From: Fervidicoccaceae archaeon
GTDB taxonomy: Archaea > Thermoproteota > Thermoprotei_A > Sulfolobales > Fervidicoccaceae
Length of the DNA stretch: 64,000 nucleotides
NCBI GenBank assembly: GCA_038734945.1
Contig: JAVYOA010000001.1
Coordinates: 124,001 to 188,000, forward strand
Reading direction: 5' to 3'
Shown here: positions 1 to 6,000 of the stretch, piece after piece
Numbering within the stretch: position 1 is the first letter of the stretch
Layout of the letters: the number at the start of each line of letters is the position of its first letter
Position numbers: made by a program

Positions 1-3000
1 TATAGATAGCAGAGTTGAAAGAGAAGTACAGGATGCTGTTAGGTTCGCTGAGGAGAGCCCGTATCCGAATCCTGAGGAGCTTTATGAGGATGTCTTCTCC
101 ACTCCAACGAGAGGGGTTCTTGTTTGGAAGTGGGGGTCTGAGGTGAGGTCGCATGGGTGAAAGAATCATAACGTTTGCTGAAGCGCTTAATGAAGCTCTG
201 GACATAATGATGGCGAAGGATGAAAAGGTCATTGTGATGGGAGAGGATGTTGGAGTATATGGAGGGGTTTTTGGGGTAACTAAGGGACTCATAGAGAAGT
301 ACGGACCAGAAAGAGTTAGAGACACACCAATAGCAGAGAGCGGGTTCATAGGCGCTGGCGTTGGAGCTGCTGCTATGGGCTACAGGCCGGTGGTTGAACT
401 CATGTTCATAGATTTCCTTGGAGTTGCCTTCGATCAGATTTACAACCAGGCAGCGAAGATTAGATACATGTTTGGAGGAAGGGCCAAGATACCGATGGTC
501 CTCAGAACCGTGGCAGGAGCGGGGTTCAGCGCTGCTGCACAGCACAGTCAGTCGCTGCATTCTATTTTCATCCACGTCCCAGGACTGAAGGTGGTCATGC
601 CGTCCACTCCCTATGATGCAAAGGGACTCCTAATTGCGAGTATAAAGGACGACGATCCAGTCATCTTCATTGAGCACAAGGGTCTCTATGGAACTAAGGG
701 GCCTGTACCAAAGGATGAGTATGAGGTCCCCCTGGGAGTGGCAGATGTTAAGAGAAGGGGGAAGGATGTAACAGTTGTTGCCACAGCAGCTATGGTCCAC
801 AAGTCCCTTGCAGTGGCTGAAAGGCTCTCGAGAGAGGGGATAGATGTTGAAGTCATAGATCCGAGGACATTGAAGCCTATCGATGCTGATATGATACTCA
901 GCTCAATTAGAAAGACTGGAAGGCTTGTTGTGGTTGATGAGGGCTATCCAAGGTGCAGCTTCGCTACAGATATAGCTGCTATGGCTGCCAGCATGGCCTT
1001 CAAGAGCCTCAGGGCTCCTGTAAAGCTGGTAACGCCCCCTGACACGCCTGTTCCCTTTAGCCCAGCCCTCGAGGAAAAGTGGATACCAAGCGAAGCGGAT
1101 ATAGAGAAGGCTATTAGGAGTACCATGGAGGATAAATGAGATGGGAGAAAGAATAAAGGCTGCTTTCATTTTCATTGCCCCAGGCGCCAAGAGCGATAGG
1201 GATAGCGCCTTTGTGAGGACCCCCGCTGTTGATCTTGAGGTCCACGGAGTTAGCAGCTACGAGGAGGCTGCAGCTCTGGCTAAAAAGCTAGTTGAAGATG
1301 GAGTTTCTGTAATCGAGCTTTGTGGCGGGTTTGGAAACAGAGGAGTAGCTATTGTATCAGAGGCTGTGGCAGGGAAGGCTAAGGTTGGAGCAGTCAGATT
1401 CGATGTTCATCCAGCTCTGGGTGGACGCAGTGGGGATGAACTGTTCAAATAATTTTTTTCAATAAATATTCTGAGTGGGGAGTGAGATTTAATGGTTGAA
1501 ATTAATGTGGTCATGCCCAAGCTTGGTTTAACCATGAGGAGCGGAACAATAGTGGAGTGGCTGAAGAAGGAGGGGGATATGGTCAGGAAGGATGAGGCGC
1601 TGGCAACAATTGAGACTGGAAAGATTAGTGGAGAGATAAGATCCCCAGATGATGGAGTGCTGAAGAAGATCTTGAGGAAGAGCGGGGAGGAAGTTCCTGT
1701 GGGAGAGATAGTAGCAGTAATTGAGAAGGAGTGAAGAGCAATGAATCAAGACGAGGAAGCTCTGAAATTTATGATGGAGCAGTATGATATTAAGGAGGAA
1801 GATGTTAGGAAAAGATTTGGAAAGTTTGATAGAGAAAGTGTAGAGAGATACATTGAAGAAGTGTTCCTACCAAAGATCAGGGAGAAAAGGAAGATAATAG
1901 GAATTAGGAAGACAATTGCTGATAATCTCTACAGAAGCTACAGCCAGGCTGTTCATGTGACGCTGAACATGGAAGTTAGCATGGAGAGGCTTCTGGCAAG
2001 GAGGGAGGAGCTGGCAAGGAGCCTGGAGAAACCTCCCTCGCTTACAGTTATGATAGGAAAGGCTGCTTCAGCTGCACTAAAGGAATTTCCAACCTTCAAT
2101 GCCACATTTGATGGAAAGGAGATTGCCATATATGATGATGTGAACATTGCCTTTGCAGTTGATTCTCCCTTTGGTCTGTTCACTCCAGTCATTAGAGGAG
2201 TTGAGAGAAGGAGCATTGATGAGTTGAGCAGGGAGTTCGAGGACGCAGCAGAGAGGGCCAGAAGGGGGATGCTGAAGGAGAAGGATTTCGTGGGTGGGAC
2301 GTTTACAATAACCAATCTGGGAATGTTTGGTGTGTTCACATTCAATCCAATAATAAATCCTCCACAGGTGGCAATACTTGGAGTGAACACTGTATTCGAG
2401 AAGCCTGTGAGGGGAGAGAAGAATGAGATTGAGTGGAGGAAGAGCAGCTTCCTATCCCTCACATTCGATCACAGGATAAATGATGGGGCTCCTGCTGCGA
2501 GGTTTCTTGATAGGATAAAGCACTATATTGAAAATCCCGATGAGGTGAGGTGGAGCGGAGAGTAGAGGGTATAGGAGGCTCTTGGTAGAGGTAGGGATGG
2601 GTGTAGATCAGCACGGTCAGGATCCTACCAAAGCTGCAGTTAAGGCAATAAAGGATGCAATGTCCAGGGTATGCATACCATATCTGGTGAGCGAGGGAAA
2701 GCTTAGGGATTTTGCTGTAGAAGTTGAAGTGGGGGTTCCCCGAAGCAAGGAAGTGAGATTGAAGGATCTGGAGGATGCCATACAAATAGGAAAGTTAAGA
2801 TCACTGAAGGTTGTTGAAGGTGGGCTGAGCACAGCATGTGTTGAAATGAAAGAGCTTGGAGATAGGAGCAGTGAGATGATAATCGCTGTTGCCTCAATCA
2901 CAGTGCTGGTGAGGGAATGAGCTTGGCAAAGCCTGTGGGCCTGATCGCGAATCCAGCTTCTGGTAGAGATATAAGGAGATTGGTTGCGCATGCCAGCGTG

Positions 3001-6000
3001 ATAGATAACGTTGAGAAGGCAAACATTGTTCGGAGAATAATTGCTGTGCTTGATTTTTTAGGTGTGGAGGAAATGGTAGTTATGCCTGAAACATTTGGAA
3101 TTACTGAGAGAGCTCTGAGCCTCCTTCCACAGAAGCCCAAAATGAAGGTGAATTTTCTTGATATGAGGGTCAATGGGGATTGGACAGATACGTTTAGAGC
3201 ATCGGAAATGATGAGGGGGAATGTGGGAGCAGTCATAAGCATAGGTGGTGATGGAACCAATAGGATCATTGCAAAAGCTGGACTGGATGCTCCACTAATG
3301 CCAATATCCACGGGAACAAACAACGTCTTTCCGTATATGATTGAAGCAACTATAGCTGCTCTAGCAGTGGGCTCTGTTGCACTTGGAGCTGCTGATCCTG
3401 CCAGGGTAACTTTCAGATCAAAGAGAGTTGAGCTGCTGATCGATGGAGAGCTTCGGGATATTGCTCTAGTAGAGATCAGTGCAACAACACATCAGTTCAT
3501 AGGATCCAAGGCTATCTGGAGGCCGGACTTCGTAAGAGAGATCGTTGCCTCTGTTTGTGCTCCTTACAACATAGGGCTTAGCTCAATACCTGGAGCTTTC
3601 TATGAGATAGGCCAGATGGATGAGGGGGGAGCATATGTGCTCATTGGAGATGAGGGGGATAGAGCTGTCTCTCCAATTGCTCCAGGCGTTCTCAGAGAGA
3701 TCAAAGTGAAGGAGAGGAAAAGGCTGAGCAATGAGGAGCTCGTTGAAATTAGAACTTCCCCCAGCGTCATAGCGCTGGATGGAGAGAGGGAGATCATTGT
3801 TAGAGGAGAGGAAAGGGTCAGGGCTAAGATTACAAGAAATGGAGCAAGAGTCATAGATTACAGGAAGGCGATAATGGAGGGCTTTGCTGGAGGGCTTCTC
3901 TCTTCCTCCTTTCATTCTTCTCTCCAGGACAAGTAGTTTTTTTCTGCCGCTTTATCAGCTTGTTTCTCAAAAATTATTTTGAATGTGGGAAATGCCGGGA
4001 CTCGCTCCCGATGAATAGACCTCCAGGTAAACCAATGCTGCCATTAGGGTCATAGTGATGATGGCAGGAAATATTGAGAGAAACGGCGTCAAGAGATGAT
4101 ATGCTGGTCCACTATTTACAATGGCTGGGGGAATTGTGAGAGCTCCAGCCGAGGATACCCCTCCTAGGCTCTGCGGTATTTCTCTAATTGCCTCGCCAAC
4201 GAGAACTACTCTGGAGAGGAAAACGAGCGCTGAAAGCGAGGGATATGCTAGAGAAACAGCAAACGACGCCCTGGCCAAGTTTCGATTCAAGCTGGATCTG
4301 AAAACAGATGCAAGTAAGTAAATACCAATGATAATGGAGATGAGAGAGAAGACCAAAAGGGGATAAGAGAGCTCAGAGGCTCTGTCCAGAGCATCAATTG
4401 ATAGAGGATCTCCAAATATAAACAGGCTGTAGCCTGCAAGGGCAATTCTCCCCTCAATTGAGCCCTCAAATTGGTAAATAGGGAGAACAAGAGAAAGTGC
4501 TGTTAGGGTGCCGTAGATCAGTTGAGATGATCCTGCCAGCAGCCTAAGCAGCCTAGGAATTCTTAGTGAACTCTGCAATTCCAACCCACCTGTTTGTTCT
4601 GTTCATAAATTCATAGAATACTTCTACGTATGCATAGTCATATTGACTTGGAAATTCTATCTTAAGGCTTCCAGCAGGAGGAACAAGTGTCTGGTTGAGA
4701 AGGCTCATGCTTTTCTCTATCCTTGGGGAACCATAATATGAGGTTGCATTAACATAGTATATGGTGGAATTTATTATGCTGAGGGGGACAGGATTTGGAT
4801 TCTGGATCAGTAGACTTGCATTCTCAATTTCAAGTTCTGGCTCCTGCCATGATATGACCAGGGGATAAGAGCCTGTTAGCTTTCCCTTATCAAGATTAAG
4901 GGACAAGTTCAGCTGATAGTATGTTGATTGATTTTCATATAGAGCCTGCAGAAGATCGGCAGGCATGGGTGCAATGAGAGTGGTCCCGTTAAGGATTGAT
5001 GCGCTGCATGGGAAGGATGTGGATTGTAAAACAAAAGAGCAGGAATCCACGCTTTCAATTGATAGATCTCTGAGATTGTAATTCAAAACAACAAGGGTCT
5101 TGTTCTCAGATAAACCAATAGAGCTCAGAGTTATGCTTGGAAGCTGAATTTCGGCTGCCTTTCCTGGAGCTTGAATAACTGTGAATAGAAATGAGAGCAC
5201 TAGAACCAGGAGAACAAGCGTGAAGACAAATGCCTCTAGAGAGAATGGCGAGAGAAGAGATTCTTCGAATTTTCGAATGTCTATGTAGGAGAATATGGAG
5301 AGGATGAAGAGGGAGGATATCCATAGCCAGGCTGGAACAGATAAAAGAAGCTTGTACCTCACGCTCTCTCTTTTTACTGGAGGATCTGGTATTGGGTTGA
5401 AGTCCCCCTTTGTTGTTACAATACCATCGCTCACATTCAGGACTCTGTGTATTGTGCAGTGAAACGGATCGCTACAATATATTACTATGTCTCCAGGAGA
5501 GTAGCTGCTGATGGAGGTTGAGATTGAGAGCGCGAGGTCCCCTGGTTTCAAAGTGGGGTACATCGAGAATCCCCAAACGATGTTTATTGATGCTGGAAAA
5601 GAAAAGAGCCTGGAGCCTATAGCAAGGAGGAAAATGAGGATGGCTGCTGCTGTGTACAGAAAACTGCTAGATTTCAATTCAGGAGATCACCTGAACTGTT
5701 ATTGGATAGTAGACACAAGCCCCCTGCCCACCAGAAATCGTGCAATATATTAAGTTCAAATTCAGAGAGGATGTGCCGGAGCCGGAGGAGCTTATGCTTG
5801 CTATTATGGCATTTCCTGAGCCAGGAAGCAGGGAAATCTCAGACGTAGAATAGGAACCTGGAATTCCCGAAGAGAACGTTATCGATGTCGAGCTCGCTCC
5901 ACCTTGAGAAAGGAGATAGATTGAGCCGGAGTGATTTGATGAGAGAGAGTATGAGGATAGGGAAAGCGATGCATAGTACTGCACTGTGTCCAACACGGTT

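Follow-up and report, generated by a model that had tools for sequence, protein, structure and literature searches.

Lipoyl-dependent systems that lack an obvious dihydrolipoyl dehydrogenase (E3) have been described before. The genome of Eubacterium acidaminophilum keeps the P, T and H proteins of glycine cleavage and is without dihydrolipoamide dehydrogenase, according to the passages on this point in two papers (PMC4056300, PMC12674515); the first of these suggests that, where E3 is absent, electrons pass to the thioredoxin system. For Thermococcus kodakarensis, the relevant part of PMC11032457 lists clear homologues of T, P1, P2 and H, with only 'limited homology' for the L-protein. Among acetoin dehydrogenases, the acoXABC operon of Pseudomonas putida and Cupriavidus necator does not encode E3, as far as the operon is described in the pertinent section of PMC10107126. 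The locus examined in the present study lies in an archaeon of the family Fervidicoccaceae.

A split-E2 operon under selection

The window, a stretch of 64,000 nucleotides with position 1 at C1:124001, opens within a tightly packed operon of seven genes, in the order E1alpha, E1beta, DUF6506, free lipoyl carrier, E2 core, Lin0512 and AcoX-like. Positions 1–3936 are its distal portion and contain six of the seven genes whole (Table 1); the first 160 nt are the 3' end of the E1alpha gene, since that reading frame begins upstream at C1:123132. The E1alpha and E1beta frames overlap by 8 nt, DUF6506 follows E1beta after 1 nt, and the carrier and E2 core are 6 nt apart. Reading frames and profile searches agree with the gene order and families given in the first-pass annotation, including the short gap that splits lipoyl domain from E2.

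Table 1. Genes of the operon in the window
Feature	Position	Strand	Details
E1alpha, 3' end	1..160	+	Operon gene 1; whole gene C1:123132-124160, 342 aa
E1beta, 328 aa	153..1139	+	Transketolase-like pyrimidine-binding and C-terminal domains; PF02779, PF02780, NF006667
DUF6506 protein, 103 aa	1141..1452	+	PF20116; invariant Cys61 in ELCGGFG
Free-standing lipoyl carrier, 80 aa	1492..1734	+	PF00364; lipoyl-lysine K44
E2 catalytic core without lipoyl domain, 274 aa	1741..2565	+	PF00198; DHRINDG
Lin0512-family protein, 112 aa	2582..2920	+	PF09585, TIGR02058; GxGxDxHG motif, conserved Cys31
AcoX-like protein, 339 aa	2917..3936	+	Last gene of operon; PF01513; NAD-kinase/diacylglycerol-kinase fold, GGDGT

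The first two genes encode the alpha and beta chains of a TPP-dependent, heterotetrameric E1. E1alpha matches TIGR03182 (PDH E1alpha) at 383.5 bits, slightly below the equivalog cut-off of 393.85, and its orthologue in G003 (69% identical) matches PF00676, while E1beta scores 156.9 bits with PF02779, 133.6 bits with PF02780 and 375.9 bits with NF006667 (cut-off 321). The carrier (PF00364, 71.3 bits) has its lipoylatable lysine, invariant across all 17 carriers aligned, on a protein separate from E2, and the NCBIfam model that fits it best is NF011457 (79 bits), for the lipoyl end of acetoin dehydrogenase E2. The E2 core (PF00198, 248.9 bits) carries the DHRxxDG acyltransferase motif in its translation. 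Its N-terminal 65 residues gave no match to PF02817, even at a maximum E of 10; the homologous region scores 35.6 and 39.1 bits at loci L043 and L051, and in the E2 alignment the binding-domain loop is lost or replaced, and shortened, in this genus (g1). The E2 N-terminus is a decayed peripheral-subunit (E3/E1) binding domain. Judged by families and motifs, the operon is predicted to specify a PDH- or acetoin-type, lipoate-dependent system that forms acyl-CoA in a 'loose' format, with a presumed E1 substrate and a presumed direction of reaction.

All seven genes are intact in G001 as well, with dN of 0.05–0.28 and saturated dS; E1beta is 90% identical to its orthologue there (dN 0.063), and E1alpha has a dN/dS of 0.026. 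Purifying selection acts on every gene of the operon, which is a module laterally shared among anaerobic thermophiles (Thermococci, Desulfurococcales, Caldisericota) and Desulfobacterales.

Lipoyl systems without dihydrolipoyl dehydrogenase

The genome (G000; nine contigs, completeness 99.95%) truly lacks dihydrolipoyl dehydrogenase. Its best match to TIGR01350 scores 145.5–152.4 bits against a cut-off of 408.8; two congeners reach 139.4 and 139.6 bits and a fourth genome of the family 120.2, and the other four family genomes score 400.7–482.8 bits. A tblastn search with four family E3 queries found no E3 fragments in G000 (top score 94 bits), none of its ORFs of at least 50 aa has the E3 redox-disulfide motif, and the position syntenic to the E3 gene of G006 holds a different ORF of 367 aa. 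Both the E3 of the 2-oxoacid dehydrogenase system and the L-protein of glycine cleavage, which are the same enzyme, are accordingly missing. Loss of E3 from all three genomes of the genus, as claimed in the first-pass annotation, is upheld by the profile searches, and for G000 by tblastn and motif searches too, and so is its observation that PF00198 occurs in five of eight family genomes, 2.4 kb from E3 in those of genus g3.

Other lipoyl systems have been retained. GcvH was found in 8/8 family genomes, and in G000 it matches PF01597 at 150.1 bits and has the motif SVKA. The same genome has GcvT (PF01571 and PF08669), the P1 and P2 subunits of GcvP (C9:422640-424857) and a bipartite LplA (LplA-N/C), all of which were confirmed for G000 alone, so that the reported retention of lipoate-protein ligase and of the P, T and H proteins holds there. 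A second operon closed by AcoX, also reported earlier, does exist (C9:94065-97402), and consists of a fused E1alpha-beta, a lipoyl carrier and AcoX, the E2 core being absent. Since E3 is gone while lipoyl systems are kept and selected, some agent other than E3 must recycle the dihydrolipoyl groups. This part of the earlier E3-replacement reading stands; the choice of AcoX as the replacement does not.

Candidate routes for re-oxidation

We give an even chance to the likeliest reading, that this loose, E3-less system depends on a generalist disulfide reductase (TrxR/PDO or CoADR/NSR) to re-oxidise its dihydrolipoyl carriers. The TPP-dependent E1 would acylate the lipoyl carrier in its oxidised form; going by family and motifs, the E2 core would then hand the acyl group to CoA. 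AcoX would have no part in re-oxidising the dihydrolipoyl carrier and dihydrolipoyl-GcvH; this would fall to a generalist network of NAD(P)-linked disulfide reductases, on the model of the thioredoxin-linked glycine decarboxylase of E. acidaminophilum. The network might comprise thioredoxin reductase (TrxR) with protein disulfide oxidoreductase (PDO), or a single-cysteine flavoprotein of CoADR/NSR type, the identity of the enzyme being presumptive.

Genes for all three candidates are present, and none adjoins a lipoyl gene in G000. TrxR and the flavoprotein were already second-line candidates in the first-pass annotation. The low-Mr TrxR (C9:297467-298456) scores 340.5 bits with TIGR01292, and PDO (C2:158731-159366) scores 227.9 bits with TIGR02187, above the cut-off of 185. 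The flavoprotein (C9:483931-485277, earlier g01379) has the domains Pyr_redox_2, Pyr_redox and Pyr_redox_dim and is, as previously stated, the sole Pyr_redox_dim protein of the genome. Its best family is CoA-disulfide reductase (TIGR03385, 454.2 bits, below the cut-off of 578.8); it is not a dihydrolipoyl dehydrogenase, scoring 145.5–152.4 bits with TIGR01350 versus 408.8, and its single cysteine lies in HGPCGIPYY, with no CxxxxC near the N-terminus. In the class sample, the CoADR-like family occurs in 8/10 E3-less genomes that bear GcvH and in all ten E3-less genomes without it, and fails to discriminate between them. Classical thioredoxin (PF00085) is absent from G000, and to drive TrxR toward NADP+ reduction by a dithiol of similar potential is thermodynamically tight. 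The generalist-reductase account gives no role to the three conserved accessory proteins, DUF6506, Lin0512 and the AcoX-like protein.

A rather unlikely alternative, argued on purely inferential grounds, is that the carriers are re-oxidised by sulfur, polysulfide or CoA persulfide, chemically or enzymatically, with no need for an NAD(P)-linked oxidoreductase, or by thiol-disulfide exchange with a reaction that consumes lipoyl groups, for instance the glycine cleavage system (GCV) run in reverse to make glycine. Sequencing run labels give the organism a hot-spring origin, the NSR/CoADR-type enzyme is typical of sulfur-reducing anaerobes, free carriers and a decayed E3-binding domain would suit a diffusible dithiol, and reversed GCV yields oxidised lipoyl-H again. 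The coupling variant, however, cannot work in an E3-less genome where GCV lacks an E1/E2 partner, as in G007.

The two small accessory proteins raise a further, quite improbable, option, in which DUF6506 and/or Lin0512, each with a single conserved cysteine, would form a thiol relay that passes electrons from the dihydrolipoyl carrier on to a different acceptor, in the manner proposed for PrpU, a CxxU protein of E. acidaminophilum. DUF6506 (PF20116, 109.8 bits) abuts E1beta and is unusually conserved across phyla, with a mean column identity of 67% over 23 archaeal and bacterial homologues and Cys61 kept in 27/27, while Lin0512 (PF09585, 99.5 bits; TIGR02058, 81.4 bits) keeps Cys31 in 38 of 39 homologues, and within the family both are confined to the E3-less genus. 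Yet neither protein has a CxxC, and structure searches returned no redox-fold match: the AF2 model of DUF6506 (pLDDT 90.9) had no PDB match at E ≤ 1e-3, and Lin0512 is related to PDB 3c8l, an 'FtsZ-like protein of unknown function' (E 1.1e-17). Both proteins also occur in Desulfobacterales clusters that contain E3, and the second operon has neither.

The first-pass annotation favoured the AcoX-like proteins at the ends of the two operons as a non-homologous dihydrolipoyl oxidoreductase replacing E3, which now looks highly unlikely. Within the family AcoX is restricted to the E3-less genus, at two copies per genome, each copy terminates an operon containing a free lipoyl carrier, the fold binds dinucleotide or ATP, and the function of AcoX is given as unknown where PMC10107126 discusses it. 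That fold is nevertheless the two-domain one of NAD and diacylglycerol (DAG) kinases, a phosphotransferase fold: the protein matches PF01513 at 28.5 bits (cut-off 25.5), its AF2 model (pLDDT 89.4) has NAD kinases, sphingosine kinase and DAG kinases as best Foldseek matches (E 2.5e-10, TM about 0.5), and the motifs GGDGT (26/26), STGTNN..PY and DG.R are invariant. No cysteine is conserved across 54 homologues, and profile searches gave no flavin or Fe-S family match. At 9 of 56 related loci AcoX is clustered with a canonical E3 (GTCVNxGCIPSK), and E3 shares a genome with it in at least 9 of the 15 other AcoX-bearing genomes tested, where a score of at least 400 bits was taken as presence. Ten of the 56 loci have no E1 in their flanks, one of them being a fusion to a GFO/IDH/MocA dehydrogenase, and in G007 GcvH is present while E3 and AcoX are both missing; in other E3-less genomes with GcvH, AcoX is likewise absent or not demonstrated. 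Kinase fold, lack of a conserved cysteine, co-occurrence with E3 and the case of G007 together rule against AcoX.

It is scarcely credible that E3 merely went unassembled or that the lipoyl operons are relics in decay: although there are nine contigs and the binding domain of E2 has decayed, the genome is nearly complete, all three genomes of the genus concur, another gene occupies the syntenic E3 site, the seven ORFs are intact with dN far under saturated dS, and the catalytic motifs (DHRINDG of E2, the carrier lysine) are retained.

Recurrence and comparison with known systems

In a sample of the class, 110 genomes bear GcvH, and 10 of these have no E3; E3 was likewise undetected in five of ten further genomes that carry a split-E2 operon. 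The split-E2/AcoX operon is also present in MAGs of Thermococci, and four of the five tested again showed no E3. The gap is real and recurrent. The novelty first claimed for E3-independent lipoate recycling is weakened by the precedent of E. acidaminophilum and by the remark on T. kodakarensis, as these stand in the relevant passages of PMC4056300 and PMC11032457.

E. (Peptoclostridium) acidaminophilum shares with G000 the P, T and H proteins without E3, and in the published passages its electrons are thought to exit by a thiol-disulfide system; it differs in being a bacterium, in having glycine reductase as a thioredoxin sink and the selenoprotein PrpU in the operon, and G000 is without the classical thioredoxin. 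T. kodakarensis, known here from the published account, is likewise an anaerobic hyperthermophilic archaeon with GCV proteins and no clear L-protein, but in that account (PMC11032457) the missing protein is remarked on and not, in the part concerned, taken as a problem.

The acoXABC operon, as outlined in PMC10107126, resembles that of the window in joining E1alpha, E1beta, a lipoyl-bearing E2 function and AcoX in a single operon. The carrier of the window also best fits an acetoin-type E2 model, but its E2 is divided into free carrier and PF00198 core, AcoX stands last and not first, and DUF6506 and Lin0512 are added. Aerobic bacteria borrow E3 from other complexes, whereas the host of the window is an anaerobic archaeon with E3 nowhere in its genome. 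Sister genus g3 has a classical operon, in which a single E2 chain of 433 aa comprises the lipoyl, E3_binding and catalytic domains and E3 is 2.4 kb away; the window differs in its split E2, decayed binding domain and absent E3. With archaeal 2-oxoacid dehydrogenase complexes, as portrayed in the pertinent part of PMC3904984, it shares E1alpha-beta, lipoyl and PF00198 chemistry, and lipoylation based on LplA.

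The seven-gene operon and the other lipoyl systems of the genome

The genes at window positions 1–3936 and the E1alpha gene upstream are tightly packed; upstream of them, across an intergenic stretch of about 480 bp, lies a divergent ORF (Nudix-like from its sequence), and a convergent membrane-protein ORF lies 3' of the AcoX gene. They are therefore a single seven-gene operon, encoding a TPP-dependent dehydrogenase component (E1) and an acyltransferase (E2) that is split into a free lipoyl carrier and a separate PF00198 core. The gene order of the first-pass annotation, E1alpha–E1beta–DUF6506–free lipoyl domain–E2 catalytic domain–Lin0512–AcoX, and its family assignments were borne out by Pfam and NCBIfam.

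Genes of the operon (window positions unless a contig is named)
Gene product	Position	Strand	Remarks
E1alpha (first gene)	starts contig C1:123132, ends window 160	+	outside the window at its 5' side
E1beta	153–1139	+	Pfam, NCBIfam
DUF6506 protein	1141–1452	+	1-nt gap after E1beta; Pfam, NCBIfam
Free lipoyl domain, 80 aa	1492–1734	+	Pfam, NCBIfam
E2 catalytic domain, 274 aa	1741–2565	+	6-nt gap after lipoyl ORF; Pfam, NCBIfam
Lin0512-family protein	2582–2920	+	Pfam, NCBIfam
AcoX-like protein	2917–3936	+	4-nt overlap with Lin0512 gene; Pfam, NCBIfam

The earlier concern that such operons might be relics does not apply to this one, since all seven proteins have intact orthologues in the congener G001 (64–91% identity), with dN values of 0.05–0.28 against saturated synonymous sites; E1alpha, the only operon gene with a computable dS, gave a dN/dS of 0.026. 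The translated E2 core retains the DHRINDG motif, and the lipoyl-lysine of the carrier is kept and invariant in 17/17 homologues. No RNA data set is listed for window positions 1–3936; of the same study's metatranscriptome X15, a run not known to contain the organism, about 3% was read, and 0 reads fell on window positions 1–6000. Downstream, the minus strand at 4553–9036 carries ORFs for a 374-aa membrane protein, two Ser/Thr/Asn-rich proteins (460 and 192 aa) and a 405-aa protein, which from the ORF list look unrelated to the operon.

Lipoate ligase and the glycine cleavage (GCV) proteins were likewise found as claimed: bipartite LplA-C/LplA-N, GcvT, GcvP1/P2 and, with its gene head-to-head with that of GcvT, a GcvH with the SVKA lysine motif. 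GcvH is present in all eight family genomes. In a second dehydrogenase operon, also previously proposed, E1alpha and E1beta are fused (685 aa) and accompanied by a lipoyl carrier and another AcoX-like protein, but by no E2 core; 5' of it stand a gene for a class II aldolase and a 289-aa ORF without assignment. In this region (C9:92434-100956; L110:6434-14956) the aldolase is of the class II aldolase/epimerase family, and genes for an archaeal UMP kinase, a dihydropteroate-synthase-like protein and an iron alcohol dehydrogenase lie on the 3' side. Altogether this nearly complete genome has no E3, yet maintains under selection two E1 systems, one E2 core, the glycine cleavage proteins and three lipoyl carriers.

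The lipoate ligase lies apart from the operon, on contig C2. In Thermococci (locus L043) and Desulfurococcaceae (L051) the split-E2 operon is followed directly by an LplA-type ligase gene, and in L043 a radical-SAM gene adjoins a second E1-lipoyl set (features at L043:8966-9748, L043:12954-13748 and L051:8953-9780). At L107:4117-10176 the sister-genus genome G003 carries an E1alpha/E1beta pair followed by a 374-aa protein without a Pfam match and an aminotransferase, with E3 on the opposite strand; it has no PF00198 E2 at all, so that E1 occurs there with E3 nearby but without E2.

Absence of E3 within and beyond the family

The reported loss of E3 (dihydrolipoyl dehydrogenase, the L protein of glycine cleavage) from the studied genome and both congeners was upheld, as was its presence in sister-genus genomes: the E3 profile TIGR01350 scored 400.7–482.8 bits in G003–G006, but no more than 139–145 in the window's genus (three genomes) and 120 in G007. 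In the studied genome (nine contigs, 99.95% complete) the best match reached 145.5 bits against a cut-off of 408.8; this 448-aa protein (C9:483931-485277), probably a member of the CoA-disulfide reductase/NADH oxidase group (454 bits with TIGR03385), has one cysteine, in HGPCGIPYY, and no CxxxxC. The next two matches were a Nox-like protein of 403 aa (C9:75871-77082) and a thioredoxin reductase (340.5 bits with TIGR01292). Searches by tblastn with four family E3 proteins turned up no further fragments, the best score being 94 bits, and the E3 redox-disulfide motif occurs in no ORF of at least 50 aa. In G006, the E3 gene sits between a metallophosphoesterase gene and a small-ORF plus flavoprotein pair; here another ORF, of 367 aa, stands between the orthologous flanks (C4:35006-38325). 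To the extent that sequence can tell, E3 is truly missing. The pair that adjoins E3 in G006, a glutamate-synthase-beta-like flavoprotein (335–342 aa) and a 73–77-aa partner (C4:37077-38325; L108:7312-8601), is retained in the studied genome, where E3 is gone.

E3-less lipoyl systems are more general than was first supposed. In a class sample of 121 genomes, each at least 90% complete, GcvH was found in 110, and 20 were E3-less by a criterion of our own, the lack of any TIGR01350 match better than 1e-70; the curated cut-off alone is passed by only 52 of the 121, since many full-length matches, at 310–408 bits, fall short of it. Half of the 20 also lack GcvH, consistent with co-loss. The other ten (G000, the studied genome; G001, G032, G098, G117, G020, G021, G024, G027 and G029) have GcvH and cover at least six families. 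A literature search on E3 and glycine cleavage in Thermococcales and Desulfurococcales found nothing that deals with a missing E3 in archaea, no paper naming Fervidicoccus was among the matches listed for lipoamide dehydrogenase or glycine cleavage, and the parts available of a comparative study of archaeal lipoylation contain no analysis of E3 (PMC3904984).

The operon module and its accessory proteins

A scan of the AcoX-like protein against one genome per prokaryotic species gave 56 loci, whose flanks were annotated by phmmer with the window's proteins and the family E3s as queries. The flanks contain E1 (46 loci), Lin0512 (37), DUF6506 (27), a full-length E2 (23), a short E2 core (16) and a free lipoyl carrier (16). 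The window's split architecture recurs in 15 loci (L039–L053) from Thermococci, Desulfurococcales or other Thermoproteota and one Caldisericota, and E3 is in the flanks of none of the 15. L039 is probably a contig of the congener G002, because the E2 N-terminus is identical, and the one remaining short E2 of the 16 (L077) seems to be a full-length gene that has been broken. The E1 subunits of the studied genome are 77–83% identical to those of L040/L041 and 73–80% to those of Thermococci, but only 69–70% to the sister-genus pair of G003; within the family, AcoX and DUF6506 are confined to the window's genus. Together with the shared architecture, these comparisons point to lateral spread of the whole block. 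The operon is thus a shared module and not peculiar to this genus.

The N-terminus of E2 keeps an E3/E1-binding domain in the Thermococci locus L043 (PF02817, 35.6 bits) and the Desulfurococcaceae locus L051 (39.1 bits), whereas PF02817 is not recognised on that of the window's E2 core. In place of the KGSGPNGEVT loop, the E2 cores of G000, G001, G002 and L039 have a shorter stretch of the RKR--FGKFDR type. A decayed binding domain fits relaxed constraint after E3 loss, but the link is not clean, as the L043 genome likewise has no detected E3 and yet has kept the domain.

The favoured idea of the first-pass annotation, that AcoX-like proteins replace E3, is not supported. The AlphaFold model of AcoX (pLDDT 89.4) matches NAD kinases, sphingosine kinase and diacylglycerol kinases (E 2.5e-10, TM about 0.5). 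Its invariant positions among 54 homologues are GGDGT, STGTNN..PY and DG.R; no cysteine column exceeds 25/54, and the family profile search gave no flavin or Fe-S match. AcoX alone had 0 matches in a PDB sequence search, and its profile matched PFK, DAGK and NADK weakly around GGDG (E 0.0035 or worse). Complex prediction with the lipoyl carrier (alignments A1 and A3), run without controls, gave no verdict for or against contact (score 0.00, mark 0.32). A complete E3 gene (GTCVNxGCIPSK) follows full-length E2 in 9/56 AcoX loci, all Desulfobacterales-type, where it shares the cluster with Lin0512, E1, AcoX and often DUF6506; a tenth (L058) has an E3-like 462-aa ORF without the strict motif, and L067 an edge fragment. 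Fifteen other AcoX-bearing genomes, mostly MAGs of unstated assembly completeness, were checked for E3: nine have a match of at least 400 bits (G009, at 402, G010, G011, G012 and G135–G139), G014 has two partial matches (224 and 171 bits) on one 449-aa ORF, and G008, G013, G015, G016 and G017 (completeness not given) have nothing above 157 bits, G015 having an additional 128-bit C-terminal fragment. In G012 the E3 gene is directly 3' of gcvP2, and E3 in genomes with a split-E2 operon may simply be the glycine cleavage L-protein. Conversely, G007 keeps GcvH without E3 and without AcoX, and 10/56 AcoX loci have no E1 in their flanks. The kinase-type fold, the lack of a conserved cysteine, the co-occurrence with E3, the E1-free loci and G007 mark AcoX as an accessory factor of Aco-type E1/E2 systems, whether E3 is present or not, and not as an E3 substitute. 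A fusion to a GFO/IDH/MocA-type NAD(P) oxidoreductase in a Dehalococcoidia MAG, with no E1/E2 in its flanks (L076:7986-10049), is a hint that what AcoX acts on, or together with, is a nicotinamide cofactor or a small hydroxy/carbonyl substrate rather than lipoyl groups. What is available of PMC10107126 still describes AcoX function as unknown.

AcoX, Lin0512 and DUF6506 are three conserved proteins accompanying Aco-type E1/E2 genes across phyla. DUF6506 is much better conserved than the proteins encoded next to it: its mean column identity, over archaea and several bacterial phyla, is 67% compared with 44% for AcoX, and its invariant residues are C61, R86, D88, H90 and S97-G98-D99. A PDB sequence search gave nothing below E 0.099, and a fold search with the confident predicted model gave no PDB match at E of 1e-3 or better; weaker matches, arylmalonate decarboxylase among them (TM about 0.5), were taken to be uninformative, and the Atlas returned DUF6506 clusters only. 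None of the papers searched mentions DUF6506, Lin0512, PF20116 or PF09585.

Two AcoX clusters, in a Veillonellaceae MAG (L083:10946-16520) and a Desulfosarcina MAG (L057:9324-15699), are extended by further lipoyl-related genes: those for LplA-type ligases, of which one is fused to a radical-SAM domain, for one or two GcvH-like proteins and for a CCG/4Fe-4S protein (HdrD/GlcF-like), with an FAD-linked oxidase also in L083. Its place next to GcvH-like carriers recalls the sHdr-LbpA arrangement, and the CCG protein could be an oxidoreductase for lipoyl disulfides; E3 is still present in both kinds of genome.

Re-oxidation of dihydrolipoyl carriers

In textbook lipoate enzymology, E3 is required to close the catalytic cycle. 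Candidates for its role in the studied genome are thioredoxin reductase (TrxR), a PDO-type protein disulfide oxidoreductase (227.9 bits, cut-off 185), the CoADR/NSR-type flavoprotein (C9:483931-485277) and the Nox-like protein; the genome has no classical thioredoxin, and none of the candidate reductases adjoins a lipoyl gene. HdrD/GlcF-like CCG proteins drop out here, PF02754 being absent. Nor does the CoADR-like family mark E3-less lipoyl users: in the class sample it occurs in 8/10 E3-less genomes with GcvH and in 10/10 without. TrxR/PDO pairing is known in hyperthermophilic archaea, and this, with a bacterial precedent, guides our choice among the candidates: the chances are about even that the dihydrolipoyl carriers would be re-oxidised by a generalist disulfide reductase. 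Sulfur-linked or carrier-to-carrier oxidation has a lesser chance, as does a relay through DUF6506 or Lin0512.

It could also be speculated, though we consider it rather improbable as a whole, that E3-free lipoate enzymes are a regular design of anaerobic thermophiles (the window's genus, many Thermococci and Caldisericota) and not a one-genus accident, with the split-E2 module handing electrons to a dedicated, unrecognised acceptor system. That acceptor could be built around PDO/TrxR, sulfur compounds, or DUF6506/Lin0512 with their invariant cysteine; the lipoyl carrier would be diffusible and AcoX a kinase-type accessory acting on the carrier or E1. If true, lipoate biochemistry in archaea would have a second branch that is independent of E3.

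Other anaerobic archaea show the same E3-less pattern, and among them are the Thermococcales, which are genetically tractable. Knowledge of the re-oxidising partner, whether a generalist disulfide reductase or another, would fill a hole in archaeal metabolic reconstructions, where glycine cleavage and 2-oxoacid dehydrogenases are routinely scored 'incomplete', show how anaerobes use lipoate chemistry, and provide a first functional handle on AcoX, Lin0512 and DUF6506. For Thermococcus kodakarensis, the available part of a 2024 paper describes clear T, P and H homologues but only 'limited homology' to the L-protein, and also a GcvH-dependent phenotype (PMC11032457). An E3-less lipoyl system as such already has a bacterial precedent: in the accessible portions of two papers, the Eubacterium acidaminophilum genome is described as lacking E3, and a thioredoxin system together with a CxxU selenoprotein may carry the electrons (PMC4056300; PMC12674515).
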